IMG/VR virus record: IMGVR_UViG_3300025280_000001
Span: 4,524 to 68,523 of that record
Length of the DNA stretch: 64,000 nt
Direction: 5' to 3' (one strand)
From: a virus
The notes under the pieces are model-generated. The model ran no database searches and had not been told where the DNA came from. It worked only from the letters and a program-made list of their open reading frames with translations. The position numbers and the translations under genes were made by a program. Of this stretch, positions 29,926-55,468 are shown piece by piece. Each line of letters opens with the position of its first letter. Within the stretch, counting starts at the first letter, position 1.

Positions 29926-30567
29926 ATGCCACCACTAATGATTGGCGTAATGGCAGCAGGAGGAGTCATGTCTTCCATGGGGCAAGCAGACGCTGCAGCA
30001 CAACAAGCAGTTAACGAAATGGCTGCCTTCCGACAGAATGAAAAGAATCGTACCCATGAATGGGCTAACCAGTCATGGTTCCAAGTTCTACAGCAAGCTC
30101 AGAGATGGGCTACTAATAAAGCTATCGTAAAGGATGCTATTAGTACAAGAGAGAAAAATAAATTCTGGGAGAGAGCAAGGCTAGATAACACAAGATCTAC
30201 CATGTCTAAGAATATGGTTAAGGGTTATAACGATCTTACTTCAGTATTAGGAGGAAGGTTAGGAAAGAACTCAGCTACCTCAAGAGCTTTACTAAGGAGT
30301 ACTATGCAAAACTATCACCAAGCTCGACAAACACAGAATATAAGCTTATCCTTAAAAGATAGGGCATATGATGATCAGTATCAAAAGGCTATTAACAAGA
30401 GAGACTTTGGGTTTACTCCTGTTCAAGAGTTTAATTTGAATCAGTACTATGGGGCAGACCCAAATCAAGTATATAAAACTACACTTATGCAGGGCTTAGG
30501 TCAAACTGCTATGGGTGTTGGTAGTGCACATATGAGCTTCAAAGGTGCAGGTGGGACATACTTCTAA
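29926..30567 (+). CDS. internal virion/ejection protein (gp14-like)
   Basis: Gly/Ala/Met-rich hydrophobic ends, Gln/Ala-rich helical body, about 200 aa. Confidence 0.65.
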   Translation: MPPLMIGVMAAGGVMSSMGQADAAAQQAVNEMAAFRQNEKNRTHEWANQSWFQVLQQAQRWATNKAIVKDAISTREKNKFWERARLDNTRSTMSKNMVKGYNDLTSVLGGRLGKNSATSRALLRSTMQNYHQARQTQNISLSLKDRAYDDQYQKAINKRDFGFTPVQEFNLNQYYGADPNQVYKTTLMQGLGQTAMGVGSAHMSFKGAGGTYF

Positions 30568-31544: not shown

Positions 31545-32104
31545 GAAATATAGACCAGAGACGAGAAGATTCTAATAGACCTATAGATATACCTGATATA
31601 AATCAGAAGGTAGGTATAGAGAATGTAACATTTTCTAGTGCAGACGCACGGTTTCTAGACTCAAATAGAAATAGATATGTCTCTACTATGCCAATGCAGA
31701 TGAAGGGGTTGGAAAATTCTGAAGCCCGTTTAATGTATGATATGTATAAAACTATGAGGGGTACCCTTTTGGAGGGTGGCAAAGCTTGGATGCAATCTGT
31801 GGCAGCAAAGCAAGCCATGGATGACCCAGCGTTGACTGCGAGGTATGAGATGGAGGCTCGACGAGACGCTACCATGAAAGAGTTTTCTGAGATAGATCAA
31901 GCTGAAGTAGAGCCTAGATGGAGGTCATATAATCGTGATACTGCTAGGGGAACAAGATTTGAGAAAGATAAACGAATAATAGCACAAACAAAACTAAAGA
32001 ATAAAACCATTGAAATTGAAGAGAATGAGACCTTATCTGCGGCTGCAAAGACTGCGGCAAAATTGAAACTACATAAGGAGTTTTTAGATGAAGCAGGATA
32101 TTAA
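31541..32104 (+). CDS. hypothetical, probable internal virion protein
   Basis: coupled ORF in the ejection-protein block. Confidence 0.5.
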   Translation: MRNIDQRREDSNRPIDIPDINQKVGIENVTFSSADARFLDSNRNRYVSTMPMQMKGLENSEARLMYDMYKTMRGTLLEGGKAWMQSVAAKQAMDDPALTARYEMEARRDATMKEFSEIDQAEVEPRWRSYNRDTARGTRFEKDKRIIAQTKLKNKTIEIEENETLSAAAKTAAKLKLHKEFLDEAGY

Positions 32105-34157
32105 TCCCATACTAGACGACATCTCCCATATCTATTGGGGAGATACTGAAGAAACGGTTAGTGCATTAGATAATATTAGAGATGATTTAATGGATTATCC
32201 AGTAGTACCTAAGTCGGAAAGTATGTCGTATGATGTTACTGATAAAGACACACTCTTTTCTTTATCTGAAAAGATAGGGGTACATCCAGAAGATATAAGC
32301 GAACTTAATGATTACAGACAAGTTAAACCAGGACAAACAATAAATGTACCTCCTACAAAAATGATCTCTACTTATCAAGGTGAAACTATGCCACAAAACT
32401 TTAGGGATGCCGTACCTTCTTTGGGACCGCCGCCAAAATATACTCTATCTCCCTCAGGCGAGACCATTGTACATCCAGATGATTGGGGGGATATAAGTGA
32501 AGCTGCTAATCCATATTATACAGCTAGAGAACAGTCTAATATGGCAGGTGAGATATTTGTACCAGATAGTTTTACTGACTATGATCAGACACATCCAGAG
32601 GCTACCTGGGAAATAGAAGATCCACTAAAGCAGATTAGATTGTTACAACCAGATATTAAGGTTGGTGCTTTAAGTACTTTGCTAGATGTTAGTTCTCTAG
32701 TTCCTCTTGAAGACGATATGGCACAAGCACTACGAGCAACTAATGATGCTAATCGTAGGCTTGAGGAATTTCAAAAGAGTATATATCAAACAGCACTCAC
32801 AGATGGTACCTATCCTACAGATCAGGATGGCACTCCAGTTGGATATGATTCTCAGGAAGTTGCGGATCGTATACAAAGCGATCGACACCTTATACCTATT
32901 TCTGATAGAGATAAAGCTGAACATGCTGCTTTAGTAGAAGCTCTTGATAGAAATATGACACATTACTTTTCTACAAGATCCGGATATTCGTCTGCCCATA
33001 AAGAGCTTCTTTCGAAGTCGGTACTAGATCGAAATGTTCCTAAAGGATTACGTATAGGTGATTTACCATATATAACACCATATAATTTCTATCGGGCAAT
33101 GTATAAAGCTAGCAAAGTTGACTATGATGACGGTTTGAAAATCTATCAGAACAAAGTTAATAAACTTAACCCCAAGCAGAAAGAAATATGGGAGACAATG
33201 TTTGGGACTCAAGAAGGGCTTCATAATAAAATCCACGTAGCAGTAATTCCACATGCTGAGTTGATGGGTAAGTTTACAGGAGTATATGACGTATTCGGTA
33301 ATATGTTATATGAGAAAAACAGACCCCATCTAGGTAAGGAATATGTAATGGATATTACAACACTATCACCTAGAGAGGTAGGCTATGCTGATAAAAGTCT
33401 GTTCATGCAACAAGGTTATCAAGAGGATCCAGAAACATTTGCTGAAGCTATAGGAGATCAAATACAACAAGCTGCAATGCAAGATATAGAGACCGATCTA
33501 TATGAGCCAACAGATCCACCATTTAAAGGTAAGATAAAAGATCTTGACACAGACGATCTACTGATATACCCAATGAGAACGGACCCCTGGATCGACCATC
33601 GAACCGGCAAAAAGCTTAGACATACCTATGCAGAATATCCTCAACCTACTTATTGGGAGTCAGTTGGAGGTCTTGGTACACAAGATCCAGCTAGGGTGCA
33701 AAAACAAGACTTACTAGGATTCGGAACAGATACTCAAGTCTTTTGGTTTCATGGTGAAGAAAGAGTAAATCTACCTGTTGCTGGTCATGAAATTGGGGGT
33801 CATGGAAAACAGGTGAAGATCCCTAGTGCCCCACTAAGACCTAGACCTGATGGATCATTTGAAAATAAATGGGCTTATAGGTGGCATGAAATAGGTGCAG
33901 AGTGGTCTGAAGCTGTAAGGAAGTATAGAGTGCAGCGTGGTGATAATACCTTAGCTCCTTTAGATCTTAATGATTTTACTACTTACCTTGAAAACAAGAT
34001 TGTTGCTCCTCCCTATCCACTTCCAGAAAATATAACTGAAGTTTATGAGGAGATTCTAGATATAATGCGTAGCTGGAGTGATGAAGAAAAAGAAGCACTT
34101 AGATATATGATTGGTCACGCAGATGAGAATAACCAAGTAATGACAATGTCAGCATAA
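32088..34157 (+). CDS. LysM-domain protein with possible C-terminal zincin-like motif
   Basis: YDVTDKDTLFSLSEKIGVHPEDISELN...KPGQTINVP; GHEIGGH ... HEIGAE. Confidence 0.7.
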   Translation: MKQDINPILDDISHIYWGDTEETVSALDNIRDDLMDYPVVPKSESMSYDVTDKDTLFSLSEKIGVHPEDISELNDYRQVKPGQTINVPPTKMISTYQGETMPQNFRDAVPSLGPPPKYTLSPSGETIVHPDDWGDISEAANPYYTAREQSNMAGEIFVPDSFTDYDQTHPEATWEIEDPLKQIRLLQPDIKVGALSTLLDVSSLVPLEDDMAQALRATNDANRRLEEFQKSIYQTALTDGTYPTDQDGTPVGYDSQEVADRIQSDRHLIPISDRDKAEHAALVEALDRNMTHYFSTRSGYSSAHKELLSKSVLDRNVPKGLRIGDLPYITPYNFYRAMYKASKVDYDDGLKIYQNKVNKLNPKQKEIWETMFGTQEGLHNKIHVAVIPHAELMGKFTGVYDVFGNMLYEKNRPHLGKEYVMDITTLSPREVGYADKSLFMQQGYQEDPETFAEAIGDQIQQAAMQDIETDLYEPTDPPFKGKIKDLDTDDLLIYPMRTDPWIDHRTGKKLRHTYAEYPQPTYWESVGGLGTQDPARVQKQDLLGFGTDTQVFWFHGEERVNLPVAGHEIGGHGKQVKIPSAPLRPRPDGSFENKWAYRWHEIGAEWSEAVRKYRVQRGDNTLAPLDLNDFTTYLENKIVAPPYPLPENITEVYEEILDIMRSWSDEEKEALRYMIGHADENNQVMTMSA

Positions 34158-34169
34158 AGGAGAATAGTA

Positions 34170-37100
34170 GTGACAGATGTACCTCGCAATGAACAGTCTA
34201 TGATAGACCCTAGCACAATAAAAGAATCCCCAGAAGTCGAAGAGGTGTGGGAATCATCTTATGATTATGATGTCTTTACTTCTGGTAAAGGGTGGGGATC
34301 TGTGGAGGTATCAACTGAAGGTCGTGGTAAATATTCTCAACCTACAGCTGAAGAGATAAGAGAGAATAGAGGAAGAAAACTCCATTACGGATATAACAGT
34401 AAAGAAAATAGATTGATGTGGTCACCTATAGATAAAGTTCCCCCGAAAAGTGATTACATTCCTAAACCAGATATTACACAAGAAGAATTAGATACTGCAA
34501 TAGATTCACTACAACAAAGATCTAATCATATAAATAATAGACTAGAGCAATCCTTAACAGGAGATTCTGTAGATACAGATGATGGTATAACTATAACCAG
34601 CAACTGGATAAATAAAATGATTGATGAGGTTAGAAGTAGACTATCATCATCAGGTAAAGTAAATGAATACTTATTAAACCCATTTTATACAAGACCTGAC
34701 AAAGATGGAAAACCTGAAATACCTGCATTACAGGATCCGTTATTTAGAGAGATACTAGCAGACGGTGCCTTAGAAGCACACGAAGAAGAATTATTTAAGA
34801 AGTATCTTAAGGAAGGGACACTATCTTCTTACTCTACTATGGAAGGTGAGTTTGTTCAGAAAGTAATTCCACATCCAGAAATTGCTCCTCGTATGAAAGA
34901 TTATAATTGGTTATGGAAACGATATACTGAACATACTAATAAATATAATAATATGAAGTCAGAGGTTGATGCAATTGAAAGGGTTATTCGCACAGAGTTA
35001 GATTCAGAAACTAAAGATTATCTAATGGAAACACTAATAGATAACTTTGGATGGGTTAGAAAAGACTTTACAGATAGGGGTATTGTATTAACTGACTATG
35101 CTCGTAGTATTATTGATCAGAATGAATGGAATGATACAAGAGAAGATATGGATGATACATCCCTAGTCTATCCAGACGGATCTTTTGTTCCGGAGGGTCA
35201 TTATTATGACACAGCTACCGATACGTCTATACCTATTGAAGATTCTAATATAAAAAGAGAATTAGGTATTGTATTTAATCAGGAAAATGTACCTGAAGAA
35301 GTTGTTAATAACTTTAGGGAACTTCCTGATACACTACAAGCTTTTATTATGAAAGACCAGACATCCCTAGTCTATCCAGACGGATCTTTTGTACCAGAAG
35401 GATACTATTATGATATTGAAAAAGATCATACTGTAACTATATCAGAAAAGGTGGACCAATATAGGAAAAACTTTAAACATAGTAAAGAAGAATTAGAAGA
35501 CCTACAAAGATTTTTTAAATTAGCTCAACTGCAGGCTGGTAGAGCGAATGAATTTAGTAGTATGAGTGATAAGGAGTTAGAACAGTACATTACGAGTAGG
35601 ACGAAAAAGAGAGATGCAAAACTTAAGGGTATTACTATAGGTACTCCCCAGTTTCAGACAACTTTAGAAGCTATTACTAGAAGATTTGACGAAAGGTTTG
35701 GTACAAACTACCACACATGGGAAGACTTAAACCAAGGTCTATTAGCGGGTGCATTATCCAGTAGACAAATAGTATGGATTGAGGATATGTATAGATGGGG
35801 GATGCAGAGATTGCCAAAGTCTTCTGCTACCGCCACTAATCTATCAAAGATGGAGAAATCATCTTTCGATAGAAATAATGATAGAGGCTTTGACGTTCCT
35901 TGGGATCCCAAAATTAAAATGTTACTTGGAGGAATAGATCCTCAAGATTTAGAAACCATTCTTAGTGATCGAGGTGCTACATATAAGAATCTTTGGAAGG
36001 AGTTTATGCTACTAGGTAACGAGTGGAATAAACAGAAAGAAAATTATAAAAATATTCTTCTTGGTAATCCAGCTATGGAGAATTGGGATACAGAAATGGT
36101 TTCCCCAGAAATGTCTAGATTAGATCAGGTATTGAATAATATGTTCCTCCCTATTGAGCAGATGTTATTTATGCATGCTTCAGGAGAGCTGGGTTTTTGG
36201 GAACCAGGGTTTGAACAGTGGTCATTATTTGCTGGTAGAATGTATGCTAAGGAATACGGCAAGCGACAAAGCGGGGCTAGTGATAACTTTAATACACATC
36301 TTAAATACGCACTACATGTTATACATACTATGAGTGGAGAAATTACTCCCGAAGTAACCTCTGCCATGTTATTTCTTTTTGGACTCAAAGCTGGTTCTGA
36401 AGAAGTAGATGATAAAGTTTTCATGACAAAAGCACTACAAGCTGCTGGACAGCCTGTTGAAGCAGCGGCAATACTTGGAGTAACTCTAGAATATCTACTC
36501 CAGTTATCAGGTGGAGATATGACTTCTCTTGATCCTAATAATATTAATCAAGCAGTAAATACTGTTACTTATGAAATTGCGTCTGCAATATCTGCTGCGT
36601 CTTACGCAGCAACTACAGACCGTTTTGCATTAGAGGCATTACTACCTAAAGGTACTATTAGAGACATGACCCGAATATCACAAAATATTAGGTTTCGTAC
36701 ACCAAGTGCTGAAGCTATGGAGGGTGCCTTTGATCCTGAAATAAAGCTGGGTCAGGAACAAGCATACGAATTGCAGCAGACAGAGTATGATGAAATGCTT
36801 CGACTTTCCGCACCGTTATTGCCCTCACTTGCAGAAGGTGGTGAAATGCCTGATGTAGAGAGTATAGAAACTTTACTTGTAGAGGCTGCATTGGGCTCTC
36901 CTGCAATTGAGTCATTGCTATCGGCTGACTGGGCAACTGACGCAACTAATAGAGAGAAACTATTATATGTATTTAGAACTATGATGTTAACGGAAGAGTC
37001 TGCTTTGGCTTTTAAGGGTGCAATGTTTACAGCTTTAATAGCTAACAAGAGAACTCCAATGGCTGGAACAACAGAAAGAAATATGATGCAGATGAAGGAT

Positions 37101-38147
37101 GTCTTTCTATTCTGGGAAACATATTTGAATAGACAGAACACAGCAATCATTCCGTACACATACAGAAATGGAGAGTTTATCCCTGCTACAGCATCACATA
37201 CTAAAGAATATGACTATTCTAAATGGGCTAATCCAACTGAAGAACAGCCTGATGGTGGGGTATTAAATGTATCTATATATAACGATCTCAATCAAACAAA
37301 AGAAACCCAAGCAGAAAATGATGAAACAACAAGAAGAACTATGCTTAGAAACTTTAGCAATATAACAGTAGCAAATCCAAATATAATACAACCAATTAGA
37401 CCGGATATGATAGGACCTGCAATTAATAAGGTTATGGATACTATTCACGAAATTAATAATCAGGGTAAAGAACCAGTAGGATTAATTGAAGCACAACTAC
37501 TTTTAGCTTTAGAATTAGTAGAGGGTGAACATAAATTAGATGCGGGAATAATTCCAGTAAAGTTAGCAAAGTTAGCAAGCTTTGTTAAAGCTTTTCGAGA
37601 AGGCGACAGACTTAGTAAGATATCTTATGGACTAGAGTTAGGTAGAAGTAAAACAACTGGGGGTATTAGGGGTATGCAACAAGCTCCGCACATTCGAATT
37701 AATACGTATGAGATGGAAACCACTTATCAGCCTGGGGGGTTTGCAGGTTTGTTTCTTGAAACTAAGAGCGAACAAAAAATTATTAACTCCTTTACTATAC
37801 CGTGGATGGCTTTCCATAATGACGACTGGAAAGGAACTACGGCTGAAAAAGAGGCAGGTTTACAGGGAAGCGTTAAAGATTTTATGTTAGTAAGCAGAGA
37901 AGATTGGGTTCAAATTATGACAGGTAAGGAGAATATTCCCGCTATTGGTGGGTATATGGAATGGGAAGGCAGAGCTGATCAATATAACGTCAGGGGCTTG
38001 AAGAAGAAGTTTCTTGATAAATATGAAACATCCCATAATATCCATAATGGAATATATGGAATAAAGGTAGAGTACTACGGGGCGAATGGTAAATGGCAAA
38101 CCAACATAACCCGTGATTATACTAAAGTAAGAGTAAGAGTAAAATAA
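34170..38147 (+). CDS. large internal virion protein (gp15 position)
   Basis: 1325 aa, GTG start after AAGGAG, immediately before the giant gp16-like gene. Confidence 0.55.
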   Translation: MTDVPRNEQSMIDPSTIKESPEVEEVWESSYDYDVFTSGKGWGSVEVSTEGRGKYSQPTAEEIRENRGRKLHYGYNSKENRLMWSPIDKVPPKSDYIPKPDITQEELDTAIDSLQQRSNHINNRLEQSLTGDSVDTDDGITITSNWINKMIDEVRSRLSSSGKVNEYLLNPFYTRPDKDGKPEIPALQDPLFREILADGALEAHEEELFKKYLKEGTLSSYSTMEGEFVQKVIPHPEIAPRMKDYNWLWKRYTEHTNKYNNMKSEVDAIERVIRTELDSETKDYLMETLIDNFGWVRKDFTDRGIVLTDYARSIIDQNEWNDTREDMDDTSLVYPDGSFVPEGHYYDTATDTSIPIEDSNIKRELGIVFNQENVPEEVVNNFRELPDTLQAFIMKDQTSLVYPDGSFVPEGYYYDIEKDHTVTISEKVDQYRKNFKHSKEELEDLQRFFKLAQLQAGRANEFSSMSDKELEQYITSRTKKRDAKLKGITIGTPQFQTTLEAITRRFDERFGTNYHTWEDLNQGLLAGALSSRQIVWIEDMYRWGMQRLPKSSATATNLSKMEKSSFDRNNDRGFDVPWDPKIKMLLGGIDPQDLETILSDRGATYKNLWKEFMLLGNEWNKQKENYKNILLGNPAMENWDTEMVSPEMSRLDQVLNNMFLPIEQMLFMHASGELGFWEPGFEQWSLFAGRMYAKEYGKRQSGASDNFNTHLKYALHVIHTMSGEITPEVTSAMLFLFGLKAGSEEVDDKVFMTKALQAAGQPVEAAAILGVTLEYLLQLSGGDMTSLDPNNINQAVNTVTYEIASAISAASYAATTDRFALEALLPKGTIRDMTRISQNIRFRTPSAEAMEGAFDPEIKLGQEQAYELQQTEYDEMLRLSAPLLPSLAEGGEMPDVESIETLLVEAALGSPAIESLLSADWATDATNREKLLYVFRTMMLTEESALAFKGAMFTALIANKRTPMAGTTERNMMQMKDVFLFWETYLNRQNTAIIPYTYRNGEFIPATASHTKEYDYSKWANPTEEQPDGGVLNVSIYNDLNQTKETQAENDETTRRTMLRNFSNITVANPNIIQPIRPDMIGPAINKVMDTIHEINNQGKEPVGLIEAQLLLALELVEGEHKLDAGIIPVKLAKLASFVKAFREGDRLSKISYGLELGRSKTTGGIRGMQQAPHIRINTYEMETTYQPGGFAGLFLETKSEQKIINSFTIPWMAFHNDDWKGTTAEKEAGLQGSVKDFMLVSREDWVQIMTGKENIPAIGGYMEWEGRADQYNVRGLKKKFLDKYETSHNIHNGIYGIKVEYYGANGKWQTNITRDYTKVRVRVK
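35157..35392 (+). repeat. 32-bp exact intragenic direct repeat (35157-35188, 35361-35392)
   Basis: ACATCCCTAGTCTATCCAGACGGATCTTTTGT twice; peptide TSLVYPDGSFVPEG(H/Y)YYD. Confidence 0.95.
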
Positions 38148-38157: not shown

Positions 38158-41100
38158 ATGGTAAGACCAAGACAATCCCCAGCAGATTATTTACCCCCAC
38201 TACCGGGACCGAGCCCTGATGATATGTTTCATATGGGGTCACTAGATAGGGAGCTAGATGCAGGATATTATTCAAAGATTCCTGAAGCACCACTAGAAGC
38301 GTGGGGTGAGGATACTCTATACTCATCGAAGACTATACATGAATCTCAAAAACCCTATCAGGTAGAATCTATTAATCTTGCGACAGGTGATTATCAAATA
38401 GGACCCCTGTCTTTACTAGAGTCTAATAGATTAGGTATGGCTTTAGTTCATACTGGTGGTATGTGGGGTTCAAATGCACAAAATACAAATCTTGTTGCAT
38501 CTATGATGTTTGCTGGTAGAAGAGAATTAGCTGGTACATTTATGGCACTAGATGAGGACATGGAAAAAAACTTAAAAAACTTCATAAGTCCTCTCGCTTA
38601 TAGTAACTGGCTTAAAGGTGTTAATGTTCATCTACCCGAACTTGATAAGCCAAGTACCTATATACCAGTTAGGACACAACATTTCGAACCTATGTTTATT
38701 GGTGAAGCGTGGGAACAGTTTAATCCAAACGATTTATTCTTAGAAGAACCACATCCAGATTACACACCAGATAAGGCTTGGGCTTTGATGTGGGAAAAAA
38801 ATCCTGGATTTATGAATAGAATCTCTAAACTCGGAGCTAATGAAGAATACTTTGCGGATGCTAAAAACGAACATGAGTGGATGCATAATGCCAACATGTT
38901 GATAGAGCTAAACTATATAACTAAGAGTAAGATGTGGAGTGACGATACTTCTTGGTGGGGAAAGAATGTAAGTGGACAGTTATATACCTTTGTTGTAAGC
39001 GGTATCTTAAATGAACCAGATATGGTTGGAGAAATGCTTGTAGGATTACTTCTTACAGCCGCCACTGCAGGTATTGGTGGTGTAGCCCTTACTGCTAAAA
39101 TAGCCACTTATATGCGCAAGGGTGTTAAGATAATGGATGAGCTTGCCGAGCTTCGGACATTTGTTAGTAAGGTATTAAGAATGTCTAGGGTTACAAATTT
39201 CCTACCGTCTGCTATTCCTCATACGTTTATGACACGGGGTGGGAAGGTAGCTCTAAAGTCTAGGTGGTTTAATCCTTTTGCAAACAAGGGTCGTAATATC
39301 TTTATGGCTAATGCAGCTGAAGGAGCTCTTACAGGTACTCTTGCAGAAATTGGTAACCAACGAAGAAAAATAAATTGGGAACTACAAGACGAGTATGATT
39401 GGGAAATGGTAGCATGGCAGGGCGGTCTTGAGTCTATTATAACCCCATTCATTAACCCCGCATTTGTTTTGGGAATGAAGGGTTTACAAAGAGGTAGTAT
39501 GAGAACTATGCAGTTCAGTAGTCAGCTTATGACTGAATTGACTGGTACTGATATAGATCTAGGAGCTAAGCTTCCAGATGTTGTAAAGAATATTGTAAAG
39601 GTATGGGGACAACCAGAATCTGCAACAGATAGAATTACTCTAGATATTCTTGGTAATATGGCTTGGAAGAATTTAGAAAATATGTTAGGCTCTTTAGATG
39701 CTGATGGTAGAAAAGTAACTGGTCAAAGACTTGGTCAAATACTAGCTATGTTACTAGAAGATGGTAAACTAGACTCTCTACAAGGTCTGGAAACGACTCT
39801 TGAACTAATGATTAAAGAGGCTACTGTAAGAAAAGATGATGGTACTACATATATTGATCATAAGAAAATGGATCTTCCAATGGCAGTAGCAAAATTAGCC
39901 GCTATTGCAGCTAAGAAAAGGGGTCTGACAGCTGATGAAATAGGAACACACGAAGCTACAGCTTTCTTCTTTATTCATGGAGAAAGAATAGCTTCAGAGA
40001 GAAATAAGAAAAACATAAAAAGGAAAGACGGTTCAGAACCTGTAGGAGATAATAAATGGACTGCTCCTGATATTATTACAGAAGCGCTTGGCGGTACTGA
40101 GATAGATATTGCAGTATTCTTTGACGAAGCAATGAGAGCTGAGGTTGATGAGGAGTTGACATTAGGGGGTTTAGATCCCAAGTTTGCTAGTAAAAGTCAG
40201 GTTGCTGCAGCTTGGGAAAAAGCTATGGTTAAACGTGGTGCAACATTTGCAAAACGTGCCTCAGCAATAATTGATGAACAAGAGAAACTTATAAAAGAAG
40301 TTTCTGAATTAATTGAGGCAGCTAGACAAGCACTGGATATACGAGAAGGTGATGCTAGTTATTATATGAATGAACTAGTAGCTTCGGATCCTGAGCTTAA
40401 AAGAAGATTGGTAGAGTTAGAAAACTTTACTAATGATTTGCAAGCATTATTTAATCAGATATCAGAAATACGGGCTTTAAGGGAAAGTGATTTGCATGTT
40501 AAAGATCAAACCCAAGCTAATTCAATGCTAGATATAGCATTAACTTCTGATCGCGTTGGCGGTATGATGGCTAGATTAAAATTAATAGCTAAGGCTTTAA
40601 ATATAGATGTTAAAGGAATTAGTAAAATTTCAGATATGGTTGCTATACTAAAACAAAGAGTTTCACAGGATGAGAGATTTGATTTAGAAGCATTCAAACC
40701 ACTAGCAGAGCACCTAAGTTTAGAGCTTAGTGAAAACCTTGCTGTAATAACCGAAGAGCAATCAAACTTAGAAAAGGTTCTTATAGACAACCTATTTAGA
40801 ACAATTGCAAACTATCATAATGTATATAAAAACTCAAGTCCACATGTTATAGACCAAACCATTGATGGTGTGAAGATTGATCGACAATTCCAAGCAATAG
40901 TTAATTCTATTATGAGAGTAAACGACTCTAATTATGAGGTACTGAATATAGATAACATGACCAATACTGGTGAGTGGAATGTTACTGAATCAGGAACCAA
41001 AACCGATACTACAGAACCTATATTTCTTACCGATAAGATTCTATTAAAGGATAAAAAATCCGGAGATGTTTTAAGTAAAGGCGAGGGCACCATCCACCAT

Positions 41101-44100
41101 GTTGAAGCACACTTATTAGATAAGGCTGATCCTCGTCATAAAGAATATGTTCCTCCGCCCCCACCACCGACAACAGGTGGACACCCATCAACACCGCCAA
41201 GTAAGATTAATGAACTAAGAGAGAAGGCTGGTTTTGAACCTGTAGAAGTAGAACTATCTGGTGATCCAGAAAGTAATTCATTTGTTCCCTTAGATTTTGC
41301 TGAAAGTGTCACAGTCTATCAGACTCTTCAGGAATTAATAGCTAAGGCTGAAGAGGCTGGAGATACAAAACTAGCAAAAGAACTTAAAAGAACACTGTCT
41401 GCATTAAGATTCTTTGCTGAGAACCATCTAGATACTCTTCCTATTACTGAAGCAATTGTTGATATACAGACAAAAACATTAGCTATTACAAAGAGAATGA
41501 ATGAGATAGATGAAGAGTTTATGAATAATGAAAAGTTTAAAGCAAACTATCAAATAGAAGCAGATGCTCAAGTTGTTGCAGTATTATCTACAAGAATAAA
41601 GAACAGTGCTGATAGGGGTAAGATTAAAGAAAATGATGTTGTTCTTGATACAGAATCACAGGAAGCATTATCTTCCTTAGAAGATAGCTATAAGATTAAG
41701 CCTAAGAAAGGTGTATCTCATTGGAAGAGATTAGCTAAAATTAGAACCATGCTTGAAAAGAAATCTGCTAACTTTGGGGCTAAATACTTAAAGGCTAAAG
41801 AAAAACACAACAAAGAGATTACAACCCATAGCGATGAGATAATGAGACTTAAGGAGAAACAGAGATCCGAAATTCACAAAATAAATATGCGTGTTATTGA
41901 AGCTCATTTAGGAGAACATACAGGTCTAACTCTAGCTACAGGTAGAGAAATTGCAGAACAAGTAGCAACGCACCAACTTAAGTTAGCTAGGAAAGAAGCA
42001 GATTGGAAATTCTTTTGGGAAGAACAATCAACAATGACCTTAAATGATTTTATTTTTCAATATCTTAATAACAATCAATATGTAAGAACGAGAATACTCA
42101 AAAAACATGGTACTAAAGAAGAGGGTTATACAAAGAAACAGCTACAAGAATATTGGGATCAGGCTATAAAAAAAGAAAAAGAATTAATTGATCGTCTGCA
42201 TGTAGGTAGAATGATGGCTACCCAAAGAGTTATTAATAACCTAGCTACTGAAATCCTAGAAGAGAAGGGTGTTACGATAGATAACTGGAATCCTGAACAT
42301 AGGTTTACTCTAGATACATTACCAGATCAAAGACTTGCAGCACTTGCTGCGGGTGATGGGGTCACATCTCATATAGAAACAAAACTAGAAGCAGTAACCT
42401 TATTAAGTCAGTTTGCTAGAAGAATTATATATATGCTCAACACTCCGAGATGGAGTGACGAAACAACACTGAAGTGGGATAAGGTTAAAAAGGCATTGCC
42501 ACCGGGTATTAAAAATCTTCGGATAGAGATTGTATTTGCACATGCCCTAACTCCTGACTCTAAAAATAAAGCTAATACAGAAATGCTTGAGGTGTTAGAA
42601 TTAGAGTTTGATGTTGAACTACTAAAGGGAGCGTTAGCGGATCTAATAACATTACTAGATCCCGCAATTAAAGAGCAATATAAATATACAGCTAGAATGA
42701 TTAGAGAGGCTCAAAAAGATCCTACCGATACTCATAGTGAATACAGTTGGTATGCAGCACAGAGAATTGTTACAATGTTATGGGATGCCATGCTACCCGC
42801 TTATCGAGACGAGTTCTTAGCTAATGAAATCCATCCGGATCATATAGGTCGAGGATATAAACTTGTACACAGTAAGGGAGTTACTACTAAGTGGGGAACT
42901 GAGTCTGATTATATTATTGCGGTAGGAGAAGAAGCTAAGAATATGCTTTTAATCTTACCAGAGGGAATAAGAAAGCTTGCTCTTGAAAGGCTTGGTATTA
43001 AAGAAACAGCTATTATTGCTGATATAGATCCCAACACACTTTTAACAGCTATGGCTAGTTTTATGCATAAGAAAACTGCAGCGGATTTAGCAAAATATGG
43101 TAATGGTACAGAGGATTACAATTCAGCCTTTACTACTGGTCGGGGTATAATTGAAATTGTTCTAGATAGATCACCGGGTACTATGAGACGAGTAGTAGAT
43201 AAGTCTGATCCTGAAGGTGTTGTTGATAACTTTACTGAACTTAATGAAACTAGTAAAGAATCCGCAAAACGATTTAAAAAACCAGAAAAAGAAAAAAGTA
43301 AAGTTCTATTACCTCCACATACAGGTGATATAAATATGTTTGGTCCTCTAGAAGAGTGGGGACTTATACGTACCCTTGAGGATGAAGTATTCCGTAATAG
43401 AATTAAATTCTCTGCACATGTAGAGATAACTGATTCTATCAGAAACCAATGGGCTGATCCGAACAGAGTGTCTAATGTTAAAGAAGATGATATGTTTAAT
43501 GTTGGTCGAAGACTTCCGTTTAGACTTACACCTTATATTAATAATAGACTATATAAAGGAACAACACTGGATCGCCAAGAACTATTGGAAGCTTTGTTTA
43601 CAGTACAGTTAGATATGCCAGCAGTAGTACAGTCATTTATTTATGATGCTGTTATTGGACACAGACAATTCTATGCTAGTGAAGCTAAAACTACTAGTGA
43701 AATTATTACTACTGGTTGGGATACAGTGATGCCGTCAACTAACTTGGCTTGGGTGAATATCCTACAACAGTTGAATCCAGAGCTTCTTCAAGCAGAGAAT
43801 GTAGACTCTCCACTTGTACAACTTGTATTGGAAGAGGCATTAAGATGGGAAAACCAAACTGATCCTGATACTGGGAAGACAAGACCCTTCAATGAAATTA
43901 TTAACCAATACAACTATGGAGATCAATCATGGCAAGGTGCTCACCTATTCTGGTTTCTCAATCGAAAAGGTGATGAGTTTATAGCTGAACTACAAAGGAT
44001 TCATGATGAAGGAGAAATGGGTTGGAATGAAGATCTTGAGGATAGATATATTACAACAGCCGTGAAGTGGATACATGAATTATTATCTACTGATAAGGAT

Positions 44101-47100
44101 AGTAGAATGGATATCTTTAGAGACTTATTCAAAAAGGTTGGTATTACTGAAGATACAGACTATGATACTATCCGTACTATGCAAGAAGAGGATGGCAATC
44201 GAGTTAAGATACTAAGAGATGCTTTATTCAAGCCTGGTCCTTTGATGACTTTATATGGTGGCGGTAAAGAAGCACAGATGGTTTATTATAAAGGCGATGG
44301 TCGAGTAGATTTAGTTAGATTAAATGAAGAATTAGACGTTGCTATAACTTTAAAAGATATAGAAAACTTACAAGACTTTATGTTTGGTGGTTTCATGTGG
44401 GAAGGTACAACGATATTGCATGATGCTATGGACTATAGTGTCGAACTAAAGAGAGCAGTATTTAAGTTATTAGCTGTCGAAGGAACTGGTGGTGCCCGTA
44501 GTCAGGCAGCAATAGAATCTGCTAGAGCGGGATTACAGAAAATTTCTGATGATGACGGTGGAGATTATGGTAGAATGCTGATGAGAGCTAGTGATGCCTT
44601 AGTTCTTTTACGAGCTAGAATAGCAGATATATCAGAGTTTACAGAAATTCCCGTAAAAATTATTGAAGAGAGATATGCTACAAGATTAAGGTGGGTTAGA
44701 GGATACCTGAAAAAGAAAGCTAAAGCAAATGAGTTGGTTGATGAATATGATATGGCAAGACTCAATGAGTTTTTATTAGGGGATCGTTTGGGTTGGAGAG
44801 ATGTAGAAAACTTACGAGCACAGAACCTACAAAACTCTGTTGCTCATTATATGAACTTAGATCATATGCGTATTCAAGCACGGATGGAAGGCTATAATTT
44901 TGATCAAGACGATACTATGGGTCTAGAAGAGCTAGCCCTTTACTTTACACAGATGAGATCACATGATTCAAAACGGTGGTATCATACTGTATATGATGCT
45001 ATGAATGTACAGCCAGTTAATGTTTCAGCGTCTAAGATTGCTACTGTATATGAAGGTATAATGAATACAGATAGATTTGCTGCTAGAGTAGAAGAGCTTG
45101 CTAATGATCCTGACGATCCGAAAAGTACATCTCCAGAATTCAATGGTATGTCTCAAGCCGAAGTATTTGCTTTATCGGAAATGCTACAAGAAGAAGGCGG
45201 AGCTCCCTTCGGAATGTGGGATATTAAAGTTAATAATTACCATGCAGCTAAAGAACGGTTTGGTGCTTTAGATGAACGGGGTCAATTTATTAAAGACGCA
45301 GATCGTAAAAAATGGAAGGTTTGGGCAGAACGAGAAATTGAGGATGCACTCCTAAGAGATGAGATGTTATACGAAGCATCATATGGTCCATTAGCTTTAA
45401 CTGAATATGAGCAAGGTGGAGTAGTAACTACTAAGGGTGGAAGAGAGTTTGATATATTCTCTGAGATGGATCCCGAAAGAATGTATGGTACTATTGCACA
45501 AAGATGGCATACTGCTGATAAGGCAGCAGAGGTTGAACATAGACAGATAGTGAATCTTATTAATAAATATGAAGCATTCAGATCTATGGGTACAGAGACT
45601 GAGGCAGCAGGTCGTCAGATTCTAACTAGAGTAAGCCAGTGGAGTGGTATCCCTATTGATCTTCTTCCTACCATTAAAGAGCTGGGTATTAGAATTGGTA
45701 CTAATAGATATCCAGTAGAATCACCTTATACTAGAACCGTTAAACCTTTGGGTGACGAGACTCACGATGTAGATGACTTCATTGGAATTCAAACTGCACA
45801 CCCTGGTGGATATGCTGCAATGAGACCCGCTATTAAGAAGGTAGCATGGGATCAGGTTGGATCTTTAGCTCTCCGTAAATTCTATTATGATCGAAAGATT
45901 AATGATCTAGAGACTAGAATTAATCCATACTTAGATCCAGCAATAGACCCCTCAATACGTCCAGTTGAATCCCTAGAAAATATTTTACCAGAGCACAATA
46001 GAACAGACTTCCCTATTCTAAGTGATAAACAAAATATTCTTTATCCAGAATCTTTAAGGGGTTTCGAAGCAGAAAACTTACTATCGGGTAGAGCCGCTAC
46101 AGTGCAGTCTATACGATTTAAGCTAGAGGAAAAAATAGATATATGGGCAAGAAATCAAGGTTGGGATATTCAGTTTCTAAAAGAACATAAAGAGTTATAT
46201 CTCTCTCTATACTATATGATGAAACTTGATGACATGTTTGGATATGTGGATTCAGGATATAGACCTCCAGAATATGCAGAAGCATGGAATATAATGAGAC
46301 AACTAGAAACCGTTGGTCGAGCTACAAGAGCTAATAAGCCTGGTGAAATGTTTAAAGCTAAGTATGATATTATAGAAAAGATTAGAAAGATATATAGAAT
46401 ATCTCATGGTATGCTTACAAGAACTAGATCTATGATAGATTTACATGATAAGGGTGCTGTATTAGGTACTGTATATGTTCCTGGAAAAGGTAAGATGACT
46501 TATGAAGAAGCTTTAGTATCTGGTATACTAGGTCCTAATGCTTTAACTCCTGCTCTAGAACTAGGTTTACAAGCTGCTGATCTAATGGTACTTGATGCTG
46601 ATAATAATCTTGGAGAATATATAGCCACAACCGAAACCAAGGAAGGTACTCAAGTTATCCAAGGTATAGATAGTAATATGTTAGTTACAAAGCTTCCAGA
46701 ACAGTTTGGATTAGATACTATACTTATAAAGATGTTAGAAGATACTGGTAGATTAACTAAAGAACAAATAGCAGGATACGAAGCTGGCTCTTATAAATCT
46801 ATTATAGATCCGACTGGTAAGAATGGAATAACTAGCTATGAGCTTCTGGGTTTTGTTCAAGAAGTATTTAGAAGAAATAGAGAAGACAGATTGTCTAACT
46901 ATGATTTAGTAATCTTTGAGGTACGTGAGGAATCAGAAGGTAGGTTTACTCCTCTTAATATTCAGGTAGCTTCTAGAAGAGATCATACTGGTGTACAGGC
47001 TATTGTTAAGAGAGATCCTCTCAATACAGGTATAACTTTAACACCCCGATCCTATATTGGTCCAACCAAACGATTTGCTATGACTCCAGAATCTATATTC

Positions 47101-50100
47101 CATGCTTTGAATACTTTGGGTAACTTCCATGCTATAGAGATGATGGAGTATACACTAAGAACGGGTATGAGATTAAATGTACGAGAAAAGGTACAACCTG
47201 ATGGTACTGTTGTGCTTACACCTAGAGAAGCTTTATCAGATCGTATGAGACAGGATATGGGTTTTAGTTTTAGACAAGACAGAAAAAATGAACAGCTTTT
47301 ATATGAAGCCTTTAGATTAATGTTGGGTGAAGATACTCATATGGATTTAGTAGAAGAAACAAGAGAGATAGATGGCAGTAAAACTAAATTCATAAATGCT
47401 CGTACATATATAAATCATAATATAGATATCAAGTTCCATAAAGATGGACCGTCATTCTCTACTAGTGTTCATCGTGCTGCTCTTATATCTCCCTTACAGA
47501 GAGTTATGCAGAGGCTAAACTACTTTGGATCTAATAAATTAAATGGTGACTTAGATGCATTTGTTGAAGCTCGTGAAGAAGATCTACTAATGGTTATAGG
47601 TACAATGATTCGTAAGCCTGAGATTACAGCAGAAGAGATGTCAATAATTCTACCATTTATTATGGAAGAAAAGGTAATAAAGAAAGATGGAGAGTCTACT
47701 CCTGTTCTCGAACACATAAGAGATTTGCAAAGTAGAGCTGAATACTTCCTACAAGAAATTTTAAATGAGCTACGATGGAGAGAACTTTCTAGTACTGTTA
47801 AACACCTACATGAAATCAATACCCCAAAGATTGTTGATAAGCGTACTGGTAGGATTATGAATTCATGGCAATCAAAAACAATACCATTTGATTGGATTGC
47901 TAGATCTTTCTGGGAAAATGTTAGTGAAGAATCATTTAAGGTAGATTTAAATGAAACAGAATTTTATGAACAAGTATATAAACCACATGCAGAAAAGATA
48001 TGGGATAGTGTTAAAGCAACATACTCCAAGACTCATCATAAAGATATATTAGATTTTCTTGAGCGACATAAAGAAGAGCTTATGGAATTAAGTTATAAAA
48101 ATGCTTTAGAAACAATGTTTAATGAAAACCTAGAGGAAGAACCACGAGCAGAATCTGTCTTACTAAAAGAAGATATGGATGCTAGGTGGAGAAAAATACA
48201 AGAGATAGATCCTCAGAAAATTAAACAGCTTAGAACGAAAGCGGCATTACTCAAGAGATGGGAAGGTAGTACCACTATTTATCCACACCTTGTACATGTA
48301 TTAAGTAGTATTGATACGCTTGTTAAAGATAAAGTAATAACCGAACAGGTTGCAGATGCTACCCGCTCAATGTTGGCATGGATGGCTGAAAAAAATCCCC
48401 AGATATTTGTTAACATGAAATTTGAATCAAAAGAAAATATCCCAGGAATATATGTAGCGTTTGCTCAAAAGGTAAATCAAGCTGAATCTGGAGTTACCTT
48501 CGATGGTATATATAGAAACGATCCTGAAGCTGGGGTAAGATATGAACCAGATGAGGACATGAGAACAACAAAGAATTTGTTGTATCTAACTGGACTATCG
48601 AATGAACAAATAGATGCAATGCCTGAATTCCAAGAAGGATGGTTAGATGGTGTGGATGCTATGTCCTATGTTGTAGGATTTGATATGGAAACAACTATTG
48701 CTGCTACTCCAGAGGGTAGAGATATTCTTATGGCATCTATAAAATCTCGTACAGATGGAGATGCAAAAGGTACCTATGAAAAGAATCTATGGACAGCTCA
48801 ACCTATACCAGGATATGCTAATATCCGAAACGAAATAGAAACTATTAAATCAAACCATACACGAATAACTCTGTCTGAAGATGGTACACATTATCACGCT
48901 GTTGGTAACCCTGATAAAAAATATGCCCGTGTTACACAGGCTATTAGGGGAGATGTCGATCCTAAAGAAATGAACCAGAAAGCTATGGATATCGGTACTA
49001 ATATAGATGTAATAGTAAGAGACTTCTTTGCTGGAGAGCTAAAGGGGTATCTGAATTATCATACTGATGGTAACCCACATATAAAAACCGAAGAAATATT
49101 TGATAGTTTTATCGAACAACTAGAAGAACTGAAGCAAAAATTTGACCGTAATGGTGATGAAGTTATAGCTAATAACATAGTATTATATAGTGATGAACTT
49201 GAAATTGCTGGTACTGTCGATCTGTTAGTATACAATGAAGATAAACAAACTATTAGTATCTATGATATGAAAACTAAACGAAGAGGTGCAAAGGCAGGAG
49301 CTGGGCGTAGTGGTTTGTTATATAATGTAGATACAAAATATGAAGCTGGAAGTTATAGAGATAAGTGGACGAATCAATTAAATCTTTATTCCATATTATT
49401 AAACCACACCCACAATATAGATACAGAGACTCTTGGTATTATACCAATAGCTGTTGCTTATGATGGAAGAGTGAAGGCAAGAACTACAGATGAACTTACT
49501 CTATATGAAACAGAGTCTATCAAAGAACTTCCAGAAGTTACATTACTAGCTAGAGATGAAGGTGCTTCAAGAAATACACTAGCACAAGATGGTGGTAGAA
49601 TAACTCAAGAGCAAGCTCAAGATATGTTGAACACTCTTGAGATGCATCAGAATCGTGGCGGTAAGGTAGTTACTCATAACGGTAATGAGTTTGACTTATT
49701 AACACTTGGGCATATAGCAGATAATCCTAGACAAGCCGCTAGGATTGCATTAAGAGGTTATGATATAATGCAAATACTTATGTATGCTGAACCAGAACCT
49801 GGCAGATCACTAGATTGGTTTGGATTAAATGATGCTGGGCTAAATACAATAGGTAGAGGTAAGATAGACGAATCCGGATTAGCTCCACTATATTCACAGC
49901 AAATGCTAGGGCAAGAATTAGAAGACCTTACTGGAGAGGTATCATCTGAAGCAATAGCTAAAATCAAAGAGATGGACCCAGCAATGGCTGGAGATAAATT
50001 ACGCATTTATGTAGAAGACGATGCAAACTTAACCGCAGATCTTCTTGTTGGACTATGGGAAAAGAGTCAATCAGATAATAAAGCTCTTGATATTACTAAC

Positions 50101-53100
50101 GCTAAGGGAGCAACTAGGGTTACTATGCATAATGCACACCCATCTTGGAAGACAGCTTCTGAGATAGACTCTGTTCCAGGATCTGTAAGAAAGTTTAACA
50201 ACAACGGTTTGATTACACCACGCTCTACACATATACCTGGAGATCCTTCACTAGATCCTGCATATCTTATTGGGTTGGATGCTGCAAAGCTTTCAACAAT
50301 GGATACAGCTTCTGCTGTTGAGATTATTTTCCATGAGGTTATGGAGGTTGCTATCTTAAAGTATATGAGAGAAGATACCGCAGCGTTTGATAATCTCGTA
50401 GAAATGTTAGAACGTAAAGAAAATATAAAACTATTGGAGAGAATGATATTAGCTCAATCTGGTGGTAAGAGCGGACCCTCAATTAAAGCAAGAATGGAAT
50501 ACTTTACAAGTTCGCCAACTGAACTTATTGCCGCCTTTGCTTCATACTATGTAGCCGCTAAAGTATTGGGAGATCCAGAAGGAGTTGTAGCTCCAATTAT
50601 AAATGATCTTCATAAGTCTTCAGCTTGGAGTAAGCTAAAGGAATTTATGAACAAAACATTTAGATGGGTTGGAGATATCTATAGAGATATGTCACATGTA
50701 TTTGTTTCATTCATAGATGAGCCAGGTGGTCAGCGTGAGTTTGATGATCTTATGACCCTATTAAATACAGTGTTCGGTCTAGATCAAGAAGGTAATATGC
50801 TATTAGATGCTAATAATGATTTATCTAAACCACGTTATTCAAAAGACTGGAGATATGATACGCCTTATCAACTAGCCGAAGAACCAGCAGAAATATTAGA
50901 GGGTGGGGATAAAGAGTATCTAAAGAAATATAATAAGATACAAACACTCTCGGATGAGTTAGATGTACTGATGGCAAACGGAAAGGGTAGTTCTAAAGAA
51001 TATCGAAACAAGAGTCTATTATCCCGTAAGCTTCATGGAGAAATGGTTCAGTATGGATATGTTAATAATAATCCAAAAACCATGATAGGTACTGAAGGTG
51101 GTGAAGGTGGTCGTCATGTTCAAGGTCTTACTAGAGGAGAACAACTATCGTGGGAACAAATTATACGTAGAGATTGGTGGCTTGGTAGTGGTCCCGATGG
51201 ATTAGCTATTCTGAATTCAGGAAACATATATCTCAAGGCAGCCTTTGCGCATATGACAAGTCAAAAAATGTCGGACTATTTAGGAGGGCACCTATCACAG
51301 GGAGTGGGTGGAACCGCTAGATGGTTTGCTGATTTCTTTGATAGGAGTGGGGTTTCTAAATATGTTATGGATAATGCAAAGAAATTTATTCTTGCATCTT
51401 CTGGTGCAAATGTTACATACAATAGTCCATTTGTAATATCAGTTATACTAGCAAATATGATGGTTGATGGGGCGACTATTACTAGGAGTTCAGTATTACC
51501 ACACTCAAAGGGTATTGTTTCTGTTCAGGCAGCACATAGAAAAGCAACAGGATTTGAAAAGGCTGTTGGTGATACATTCTCACGAGATGTAATTAAACTA
51601 TTTGAAAAAAGCCCATACTATAAGAATGCACTTGAGAGTGGAGAAACTAAGGGAGATCTAGTACAGAATCTTCAAACTGAAATTATTAAGATTCTAGTAG
51701 ATCAAAAAGATAAAAGAGATTATAGCGGTATTGAAAAGTATGATGATGGTATTCAAAAAGGTATAAAGAATCTAGATGCTACATTTAGAAGTTTTGTTAA
51801 TCAGATATTTGGAATGTCCAAAGAGCAGGGTAGAGCTTATATGGAAAAAGATACTGAAATGGTTCCTTGGTTAGTTAAATCTACAAACACTGGAGAAACA
51901 TTACATGCTGCTACCCAAAGAACTAGACCTGCACTTAAGAAATTATTTACGGATAAAATATCTTCAGCAAGTAAGGAATATATTCATCCTGTGTTAGCGT
52001 ATACGGCTGGATTATTACCTAAACCATCAAGATTAAATAAATCATTAGAGATGATGCAAATTATTCATCCCGCATGGTATAGGTTTATTGCAACGAAAGC
52101 TCTGTTAAATTATAGAGCTATGGCTAATGATCCTACAATTAGTTTAAATGCTTTCGTAGCTTTAACAATGAATGCTACTGTTAGAAGTGCATGGAATAAA
52201 GTTACATCTGATGCTATGTCTGCTAAGGGTGATAGACATCTGATGTGGAATGATCTCGATGGTTTTGCTGTTAAGGATCCTAAAGGAAAACCTTATGATA
52301 TGAATGAGGTTAAAGCTAAGATACGAGAGAGATATGATATGTTACTTGATGGTGAAGCTCTTGGTGATGATTTTGGTTTAAACAATGTTATCGACGAATT
52401 GTTTGATCTCAATAATCATCTAGATCCCCATGATAAAGTTAGATCATTTTATGTTGCTTCTAAGACTAGAAGAAATAAAGACTTCTCTAGTGTAATGGAT
52501 TTTATTCTTAATACATTCCTAGAGCGAATACACCACCAAGCTTACTTTGTTTATGATAGTATATTTACTCCTAAAGTATCTGAAGCACTAGCTATACCTG
52601 AAATTAGAAGTTATTTAGAAACTAACCCCGCTATACTAGCTAGAGCTGTATCTCGTTCACAGGGTCATAGAGCTCATGAGATAGATATGTTTAAGGAGAT
52701 TACTAACACAAATCTAGATTTCAGTGAACTACTAAGTCTATTTGGGGAGGTTGCTAGTACTAAAGGTAGTGTCTTTAGGATGACAGATGGTAAAGGTAAA
52801 GACCTTACCGAAAAAGAACAGGCACAATTATCTCATGCTTTAAATGTAACCTTTAAACGTAAGTATGAAGTACTCAGAGGCGTTGCTGCTAGATATGATA
52901 CAAGCGAAGATACCTTCGCAAACAGCTTAGGAGAGGGTTCTAACTGGATTGTTAAGTCTGTATACGGTACTAACCTAGCTATGGCTACTTCTGTAGTGGA
53001 AGGAAGCATGGCTGGCTTATTAAGTACTATAGGATATAACGATGTAAAGGGGCTTATATTCCCGTTTTTAGCCTATTTAAAGCCCCTTATGAGGCAGGAT

Positions 53101-55445: not shown

Positions 55446-55468
55446 CACATCTCAAAGGAGACTCTACT

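Follow-up and report, generated by a model that had tools for sequence, protein, structure and literature searches.

Which function does a phage protein of 5565 amino acids (aa) serve, and does it bring a polymerase into the cell that the phage infects? This question is raised by a stretch of 64,000 nucleotides from the IMG/VR virus record IMGVR_UViG_3300025280_000001 (positions 4,524 to 68,523; hereafter the window, by which we mean the whole stretch analyzed), which makes up most of one 68,523-bp virus record and contains the gene for this giant protein. An initial annotation of the DNA had proposed that a domain in the middle of the protein (window positions 43490-45010, corresponding to aa 1778-2285) resembles the virion RNA polymerase (vRNAP) of phage N4, so that the protein would be an injected virion RNA polymerase (RNAP). 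We found that the gene is real, that its product is cysteine-free, and that it is conserved in a rare family of giant proteins. As the best explanation of its sequence features, we propose an ejected giant protein that combines a nuclease module with a very diverged polymerase core of the type found in Pol A enzymes and single-subunit RNA polymerases (ssRNAPs), an explanation that we judge to be evenly poised between right and wrong.

A rare family of giant proteins

38158..54855, + strand: giant open reading frame (ORF), 5565 aa, 0 cysteines; putative ejected internal virion protein (from the ORF list, its translation and homologs)
42205..45507, + strand: family-conserved central domain, aa 1350-2450; basis of the family profile

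Using a word-index search, we identified two full-length relatives of the 5565-aa protein (P0001), namely P0003 (86% identity) and P0004 (37% identity, 5729 aa); a word-index search for longer proteins returned none. A profile of the central domain was then compared with 1.84 billion representative sequences, of which only 18 proteins matched at E<=0.001, including giants of 4994, 4650 and 3397 aa as well as fragments. Relatives in IMG/VR were confined to the loci L004, L013/L014, L015 and L018, and the one metagenome scan yielded two loci at 36% identity. At L013, the homologous frame is open over the entire 9.5-kb locus; at L018, the homolog is a cysteine-free frame of 3874 aa that is cut by the contig end and matches the hidden Markov model (HMM) of the family at 6.6e-82. 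The giant family is very rare. A literature search, which covered the main texts of openly accessible papers and is weak evidence of absence, turned up no account of a protein of this kind.

A probable ejected internal virion protein

29926..38147, + strand: five ORFs upstream of the giant gene (213, 325, 187, 689 and 1325 aa), 0 cysteines each
39034..39090, + strand: N-terminal Gly/Ala-rich hydrophobic segment, aa 293-311 (Kyte-Doolittle scan)
54022..54282, + strand: C-terminal hydrophobic segments, aa 5289-5307 and 5357-5375 (Kyte-Doolittle scan)

That the protein is ejected into the host, as the initial annotation had suggested, is supported by its composition, by the position of its gene and by hydrophobic segments near both of its ends. 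The giant gene closes a cysteine-free block of six genes located 3' of the large terminase gene, in which ORFs of 213, 325, 187, 689, 1325 and 5565 aa follow each other in this order. Cysteine is absent not only from the 5565-aa protein and the five upstream ORFs, but also from the relatives P0003, P0004, P0006, P0009, P0012 and P0013, and nine other phage proteins that we checked have cysteine contents of 0.4-3.3%. The same absence of cysteine is seen in N4 gp50 and in seven further segments of N4-like vRNAPs, and a report on Alteromonas podoviruses states that proteins must be cysteine-free to pass through the tail and periplasm (PMC3821669).

The N-terminal hydrophobic segment (aa 293-311) is a possible membrane-inserting segment, and an equivalent segment was found at aa 266-361 in 4 of 4 full-length giants examined. 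The C-terminal hydrophobic segment is similar in P0006, and none scored above threshold in P0004 or P0009. Podoviral internal virion proteins (IVPs) are described as hosts of lysozyme domains and of cytoplasm-bound domains, the N4 vRNAP being such a cytoplasm-bound domain inside a homolog of IVP-D (PMC4819975, Hardies et al. 2016); elsewhere, the N4 vRNAP is treated as the third ejection protein (PMC13434306). With genes for IVP-D, the giant gene shares its position, the absence of cysteine, a helical prediction and hydrophobic segments. As far as sequence features can tell, the assignment of the 5565-aa protein as an ejected internal virion protein is well supported, and the five cysteine-free upstream ORFs are presumed to encode co-ejected internal proteins. 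The initial annotation had likened the termini in particular to a gp16-type ejection protein; neither the N-terminal nor the C-terminal parts matched any entry in PHROG, Pfam or the PDB.

Taken as a whole, the six consecutive ORFs (29926-54855, + strand) amount to 8304 aa without one cysteine. None of them matches a PHROG family, except for the nuclease match inside the 5565-aa protein that is treated below, and tblastn searches of phage records with the 1325-aa and 689-aa ORFs gave no match. At aa 48-88, the 689-aa ORF (32088-34157, + strand) carries a LysM domain of the peptidoglycan-binding kind (E 1.5e-5).

Invariant residues of the central domain

43099..43107, + strand: G1648-N1649-G1650, invariant in 11/11 sequences
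43495..43512, + strand: FNVGRR, aa 1780-1785; kept in P0004, absent in distant homologs, not a family motif
43645..43647, + strand: D1830 (F-I-[HY]-D), invariant in 11/11; no GR after it
43918-43944, + strand: GDQSWQGAH, aa 1921-1929, string of the initial annotation
43921..43938, + strand: motif A-like D1922-x4-G1927; D and G invariant in 11/11
44041..44049, + strand: D1962-x-Y1964, invariant in 11/11
44215-44265, + strand: motif B-like string RDALFKPGPLMTLYGGG, aa 2020-2036, of the initial annotation
44215..44265, + strand: motif B-like R2020, K2025, Y2033 and GGG (O-helix-like); R, K and Y invariant in 11/11
44818..44826, + strand: A2221-x-N2223 (RAxNxxNS block); N in 10/10, A in 9/10
44911..44922, + strand: D2252-x-x-G2255; D in 8/9, G in 9/9, no His before it
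44962..45003, + strand: motif C picks of the initial annotation, HDS (aa 2269-71) and D2280; not conserved as Asp in distant homologs
44983-45003, + strand: HTVYDAM, aa 2276-2282, string of the initial annotation

We counted conservation in an alignment of 11 sequences that covers at least four subfamilies of the giant family. Invariant or near-invariant residues are spread over the central domain, and comprise G1648-N-G1650, G1661, P1730, R1746, P1792, D1830 and P1859; D1922, G1927, D1962, Y1964, R2020, K2025 and Y2033; and N2223, G2245, D2252 (8/9), G2255, R2273 and Y2275.

These counts allowed us to sort the polymerase motifs that had been picked in the initial annotation. All strings quoted there were found at the residues given, the spacings were correct (103 residues from D1922 to K2025, and 247 from Y2033 to D2280), and so was the numbering given for the N4 enzyme, since positions 559, 670, 678 and 951 of the mini-vRNAP read D, K, Y and D in gp50 of the N4 record; position 424 is R. 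All four picked motifs are kept in P0004 at 37% identity, and this comparison therefore does not discriminate between them; the distant homologs do. In these, the picks for motif A (D1922, together with G1927) and motif B (R2020, K2025 and Y2033) held up without exception, being invariant in 11/11 sequences. FNVGRR, which had been taken for a DxxGR motif, has unrelated residues in place of NVGRR in distant homologs. At the position of HDS, the alternative pick for motif C, other members read LES, ASS, ESS or GNS, and D2280 is not kept; within this stretch, conservation is limited to S2271, R2273 and Y2275. For lack of conservation in the family, we rejected the reading of FNVGRR as a DxxGR motif and that of HDS or D2280 as a motif C.

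The family-conserved Asp that best qualifies as a candidate for motif C is D2252, although its block scored poorly against a position-specific scoring matrix (PSSM) of the corresponding block. With D2252 as motif C, the distance from motif B to motif C becomes 219 residues, compared to 273 in N4 and 173 in T7, so that the spacing is no closer to N4 than to T7, contrary to the initial annotation. D1830 stands at a suitable distance for a (T/D)xxGR motif, without the GR that should follow, and could correspond to the Asp of DxxGR or else to a motif C-like HD. A specific kinship with N4 found no backing either, as tblastn and hhalign comparisons with N4 gp50 and with an 8-member N4-like profile found nothing. 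Of the proposed injected virion RNA polymerase, then, the ejection role and a conserved core with motif A- and B-like residues found support; the tie to N4 and the picks for DxxGR and motif C did not.

Likeness to single-subunit polymerases

For comparison with known enzymes, we used two reference sets: nine T7-like RNAPs from phage records, which share 52 invariant columns, and eight N4-like vRNAPs, which share 31. The D-x4-G of motif A is invariant in both sets (D537 and G542 in T7; D559 and G564 in N4), and so is D-x-Y (D569 and Y571; D610 and Y612). The distance from the Asp of D-x-Y to the downstream Arg of motif B is 58 residues in the giant, 58 in T7 and 56 in N4. The R-x3-K of motif B is likewise invariant in the T7-like and N4-like sets. 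In the 5565-aa protein itself the register is Rx4K, and the Rx3Kx7YG spacing of T7 and N4 recurs exactly in the distant homologs. The Tyr of this motif never varies within the T7-like set or the giant family, but is not among the invariants of the N4-like set, even though N4 itself has Y678.

We then asked how far the family follows these enzymes in order and spacing, by searching for the longest chain in which conserved positions of the family (34 in all) pair with invariants of each reference set, with matching residues and with order and spacing kept consistent. Against the T7-like invariants, chains of 14, 14 and 11 members were obtained at three tolerances, which were reached by 0/500 residue shuffles each, with 9, 8 and 7 members in a reversed-order control; in a first run, 0/1000 had reached the score under either of two nulls. 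At the middle tolerance (0.35), the chain includes the pairs D1922-D537, G1927-G542, D1962-D569, Y1964-Y571, R2020-R627, K2025-K631, Y2033-Y639, N2223-N781, D2252-D812 and R2273-R829, and D2252 was paired with T7 D812 at two of the three tolerances. The chain against the N4-like invariants was shorter, with 9 members, and was equalled in 57/300, 4/300 and 1/300 shuffles. In other words, the chain of invariant residues fits T7-like enzymes better than N4-like ones.

A direct match came from a scan of 18 family members against PHROG, in which P0020 was the sole member to match phrog_414, the T7-type RNAP family (E 0.0059; residues 322-414 against profile positions 532-619); this was also the best PHROG match overall. 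The match covers D-x-Y and motif B, and an HMM built from the nine T7-like RNAPs aligned the same two motifs of P0020 in register (E 0.0019 among 15 sequences). P0020 genuinely belongs to the family, considering the match (6.6e-82) between the family HMM and the 42% relative of P0020 at L018. When hhalign was restricted to aa 1905-2045 and run against the whole RNAP alignment, motif B scored 23.0, compared to 12.7 +/- 2.1 for a column-shuffle null in which 0/100 reached that score; the result is significant for motif B only. The motif B block ranked first within the domain in 7/8 sequences when scored with a block PSSM.

Read in this way, the invariant set is what the active site of a Pol A or ssRNAP enzyme would leave behind, and a match of the motif A-like Asp and the motif B-like Rx3-4Kx7YG to polymerases of the T7/N4 type is supported by the alignments. 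These same observations are the ones that sit badly with the chief alternative, namely that the central domain is not a polymerase at all, but a helical part of a scaffold or channel, or another enzyme, in which the likeness to motifs A and B results from chance and selective reading. Four invariant Asp residues, along with an Arg, a Lys and a Tyr spaced exactly as Rx3Kx7YG, look like an active site rather than a scaffold. In addition, order and spacing agree with the T7-like invariants better than in all 500 shuffles at each of the three tolerances, and the best PHROG match of P0020 falls in the T7-type RNAP family at precisely the predicted segment.

Evidence that weighs against a polymerase

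The following results speak for this alternative and against a polymerase, and the statistical tests of polymerase likeness disagree with each other. To begin with, two of the four classical motifs are missing: neither a DxxGR nor a His-Asp motif C is conserved in the giant family. Standard homology tools were all negative for the 5565-aa protein. Pfam and PHROG searches with four overlapping pieces of the giant gave weak nuclease matches only, and the 5565-aa protein matched neither PF00940 nor phrog_414. Searches of PDB sequences with the central domain, by phmmer and with the profile, found nothing at E<0.1, and tblastn with aa 1401-2600 against 50,697 phage records gave no match. Comparing the family by hhalign with the nine T7-like RNAPs gave a probability of <=0.5%, and the comparisons with N4 gp50 (0.1%) and the 8-member N4-like profile (P 0.54) were not significant. 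The ESM Atlas contributed only unnamed viral clusters at 0.89, and no polymerase.

The chain test itself is home-made and was devised after the motifs had been seen. Two further chain tests based on PSSMs remained at chance level: with six ssRNAP blocks, the proposed sites were not picked and shuffles were not beaten, and with three blocks, 26/200 shuffles reached the score of P0001 and only P0016 stood out, at 1/200. Moreover, over aa 1800-2270, hhalign produced a non-colinear match that scores as high as the motif B match, which implies that local matches of this size can be chance. This out-of-order match connects the RAxNxxNS block (aa ~2221-2235; aa 1419-1450 of the L018 ORF) to T7 ~318-331, and is itself probably due to chance; N2223 of the same block is paired with N781 in the chain, and the meaning of the block is therefore uncertain.

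Structure prediction lent no support to a polymerase. Low-confidence AlphaFold2 models of aa 1350-2450 (18-row alignment; mean pLDDT 56.0, pTM 0.33) and of the 591-aa core of the L013 homolog (16 rows; pLDDT 57.8, pTM 0.38) are both almost entirely helical, without a confident palm sheet, and an alpha-helical make-up is also described for ejection proteins of the T7 gp15 and gp16 type (PMC13434306). Foldseek searches of the PDB with both models returned 0 hits at E<=0.001 and no polymerase, and one of BFVD returned only an uncharacterized protein of an uncultured virus. However, confidence is lowest exactly where the palm would lie, and the models therefore cannot exclude one.

window 3-284, + strand: last 93 codons of the 801-aa RNAP gene, the rest of which lies just outside the window
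55469-57433, + strand: 654-aa RNAP-like ORF, 11 cysteines, directly after the giant gene

A final point is that the phage already has a canonical RNAP and an RNAP-like ORF, so that a third polymerase is not needed. A canonical T7-like RNAP of 801 aa (G000:C1:2402-4807) matches phrog_414 at 6e-153 and PF00940 at 6.7e-78. The 654-aa ORF, with the DxxGR-like MDLDGRIYY, the motif B-like RKPFIKPGGTTLSY and AHDC, matches phrog_414 at 9e-12 (aa 180-262 only) and PF00940 at 0.05, and from its sequence looks like a second, divergent single-subunit RNAP. It yielded no match in tblastn searches of phage records, nothing in BLASTP against the central domain of the giant, and nothing significant when the family was compared with it by hhalign; PDB sequence searches with this ORF, with the C-terminal 2065 aa of the giant and with the nuclease region found nothing at E<0.1. 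Canonical RNAPs occur in 3/4 of the contigs that carry a giant homolog, the fourth contig being only 55% complete. Given the canonical RNAP, a virion polymerase would be an addition, as in N4, and not the sole RNAP of the phage. Weighing these results, we consider a central domain other than a polymerase quite possible, if short of probable.

Two related contigs showed variations on this arrangement. In contig G004, a comparable RNAP-like frame of 595 aa lies just 3' of the giant homolog, and an 82-kb relative has its match to the canonical RNAP divided between open frames of 620 and 259 aa (G002:C1:39576-40737).

The nuclease region and a proposed mechanism

48655..50037, + strand: nuclease region, aa ~3500-3960; PD-(D/E)XK-type module between DnaQ-like exonuclease motifs (from PHROG and Pfam matches and by eye)

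Further downstream in the protein, aa 3602-3762 match phrog_298 'exonuclease' (E 2.9e-10). The same residues match PF12705, a PD-(D/E)XK family, with an E of 4.5e-4 and 20.7 bits, just under the 22-bit cut-off. The DnaQ-like motifs DMET (aa 3509), HNGNEFD and YVEDD (aa 3951) were read by eye only. The PD-(D/E)XK piece (P0001 aa 3549-3768) aligns with aa 1070-1292 of P0004, about 2500 residues earlier, and by this different placement the modules are shuffled between the two giants.

Combining these elements, we propose the following mechanism. The 5565-aa protein would be packed in the capsid and expelled via the tail at infection, like T7 gp16 and N4 gp50, after which it would be held at the inner membrane by the hydrophobic segments close to its termini, with the central modules reaching into the cytoplasm. 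The module at aa ~1640-2280 would be a very diverged nucleotide polymerase of the Pol A / single-subunit RNA polymerase type, with a putative active site formed by D1922 (motif A, with Gly at +5 as in RNA polymerases), D1962-x-Y1964, R2020, K2025 and Y2033 (motif B, O-helix) and D2252 (motif C). It would act on the entering genome, most likely by transcribing from the leading end, which would help to draw the DNA in and express the first genes. The second module, at aa ~3500-3960, would act as a nuclease. For the polymerase itself, with its presumptive fold, catalytic activity and substrate, we see roughly an even chance.

The presence of a nuclease region on the same polypeptide also lends itself to a different reading, in which the domain derives from a Pol A or ssRNAP enzyme without being a promoter-specific early RNAP; it could bind or translocate DNA and so control genome entry, or act jointly with the nuclease as a polymerase of a primer-making or DNA-repair type. 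Such a derivation would be consistent with the retention of motifs A and B alongside the loss of DxxGR and of the His of motif C; in addition, the two other RNAP-type genes could cover transcription, and T7 gp16 is described as controlling DNA entry in works cited by PMC13434306. Against this, both candidate catalytic Asp residues are invariant together with R, K and Y, which argues for catalysis. Furthermore, the Gly at +5 of motif A, a position at which Pol A DNA polymerases have a Glu steric gate, and D-x-Y are both invariant throughout the nine T7-like RNAPs and the eight N4-like vRNAPs. We regard a derived domain of this kind as improbable.

Genome and gene neighborhood of the phage

3073-4761, + strand: primase-helicase (PHROG/Pfam)
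5356-7050, + strand: family A DNA polymerase (PHROG/Pfam)
12498-14189, + strand: portal (PHROG/Pfam)
20005-23492, + strand: tail tube A and B (PHROG/Pfam)
28168-29850, + strand: large terminase (PHROG/Pfam)

The sizeable genes of the window are all on the + strand, and the PHROG and Pfam families that its proteins match are those annotated for T7-type phages; ribonucleotide reductase, scaffold and major capsid protein were matched in addition to the genes given above. By tblastn, the nearest phage records to the portal were those of Autographiviridae and pelagiphages, at ~32% identity. Judged by its gene content, the phage is a podophage of roughly 68 kb with T7-type replication, portal, capsid and tail-tube genes. 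The ends of the record (1-127 and 68397-68523) are identical over 127 bp, which could reflect either the overlap of a circular assembly or a short terminal repeat. An ORF of 1444 aa (23504-27838, + strand) sits between tail tube B and the terminase and has no family match except a weak calycin-like one (E 0.0019, below the cut-off); it may encode a tail fiber or spike. The G+C content is 0.43-0.46 at 52001-60000 and 0.36-0.42 in the remainder of the window, the higher-G+C stretch taking in the 654-aa RNAP-like ORF, the small ORFs that follow it and the part of the giant gene that encodes the C-terminus.

Comparison with known systems

Virion-delivered single-subunit RNAPs have been described as a hallmark unique to N4-like phages (PMC13434306). 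If the central domain is indeed a polymerase, the giant would be the largest protein with a virion-delivered ssRNAP, found in a phage with T7-type genes, and would link the infection strategies of T7 and N4. It would also represent a very diverged new branch of single-subunit polymerases, a family of biotechnological interest, and would indicate that ejection proteins can bring several enzymes into the cell at once. On a still broader view, one could picture a rare podophage lineage of the T7 supergroup that carries a third, virion-borne single-subunit polymerase in an ejection protein of 4650-5729 aa, besides the canonical T7-like RNAP and the second, divergent RNAP-like gene, and co-injects nucleases, having either invented the N4 strategy independently or kept, as a relic, a polymerase in the last ejection protein that predates the split between T7-like and N4-like phages; we think this scenario rather unlikely. 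Even without a polymerase, a cysteine-free ejected protein of 620 kDa in a 68-kb phage raises questions of capsid packing and tail passage.

Polyvalent proteins are similar to the giant in being multi-domain proteins that are probably packaged and delivered with the DNA, and in combining enzymatic modules with uncharacterized regions (Iyer et al. 2017, PMC5512222). The hub domains named in the sections of that paper considered here (MuF, ArdC-N, methylase and SNF2 ATPase) were not found in the giant, and those sections make no mention of a comparable polymerase-like module.

In the gene order of the phage, a parallel to the giant is T7 gp16/IVP-D, which is likewise the largest and last gene of a cysteine-free block beside packaging genes, and shares with it a helical prediction and hydrophobic segments. 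It differs in that the giant has no sequence match to any IVP family and is >4x the size of T7 gp16, which measures about 1300 aa. The 1325-aa ORF, being near gp16 in size, may be the real counterpart of gp16, in which case the giant would be an additional protein.

N4 gp50, the vRNAP of Schitoviridae (~3500 aa, with the mini-vRNAP at 998-2103), is likewise giant, cysteine-free and encoded with ejection proteins, and has its core enzymatic region in the middle of the polypeptide, as the giant putatively does. N4-like vRNAPs and the giant family have the invariants D-x4-G, D-x-Y and Rx3K in common. On the other hand, we detected no sequence or profile similarity to gp50; the giant lacks TxxGR, is 5565 rather than 3500 aa long, and contains extra nuclease modules. 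This phage also differs from N4 in having T7-type replication and structural genes and a one-piece, T7-like RNAP of 801 aa; whereas an N4-type genome has Schitoviridae core genes and a two-subunit RNAPII, the portal, tail tube, primase-helicase, DNA polymerase and RNAP of this phage match families annotated for phages of the T7 type.

With those of the T7-like RNAPs (PF00940, phrog_414), finally, the invariant residues of the giant family can be paired one to one, in colinear order and at similar spacing, at motif A, D-x-Y, motif B, the Asn of the PNxxHS block and the candidate Asp of motif C, and one member, P0020, gives a weak direct match. In contrast to these enzymes, the 5565-aa protein stays below all thresholds and is without DxxGR and His-Asp, and its domain is embedded in a structural protein, with the true PF00940 enzyme of the phage encoded by the separate 801-aa gene.

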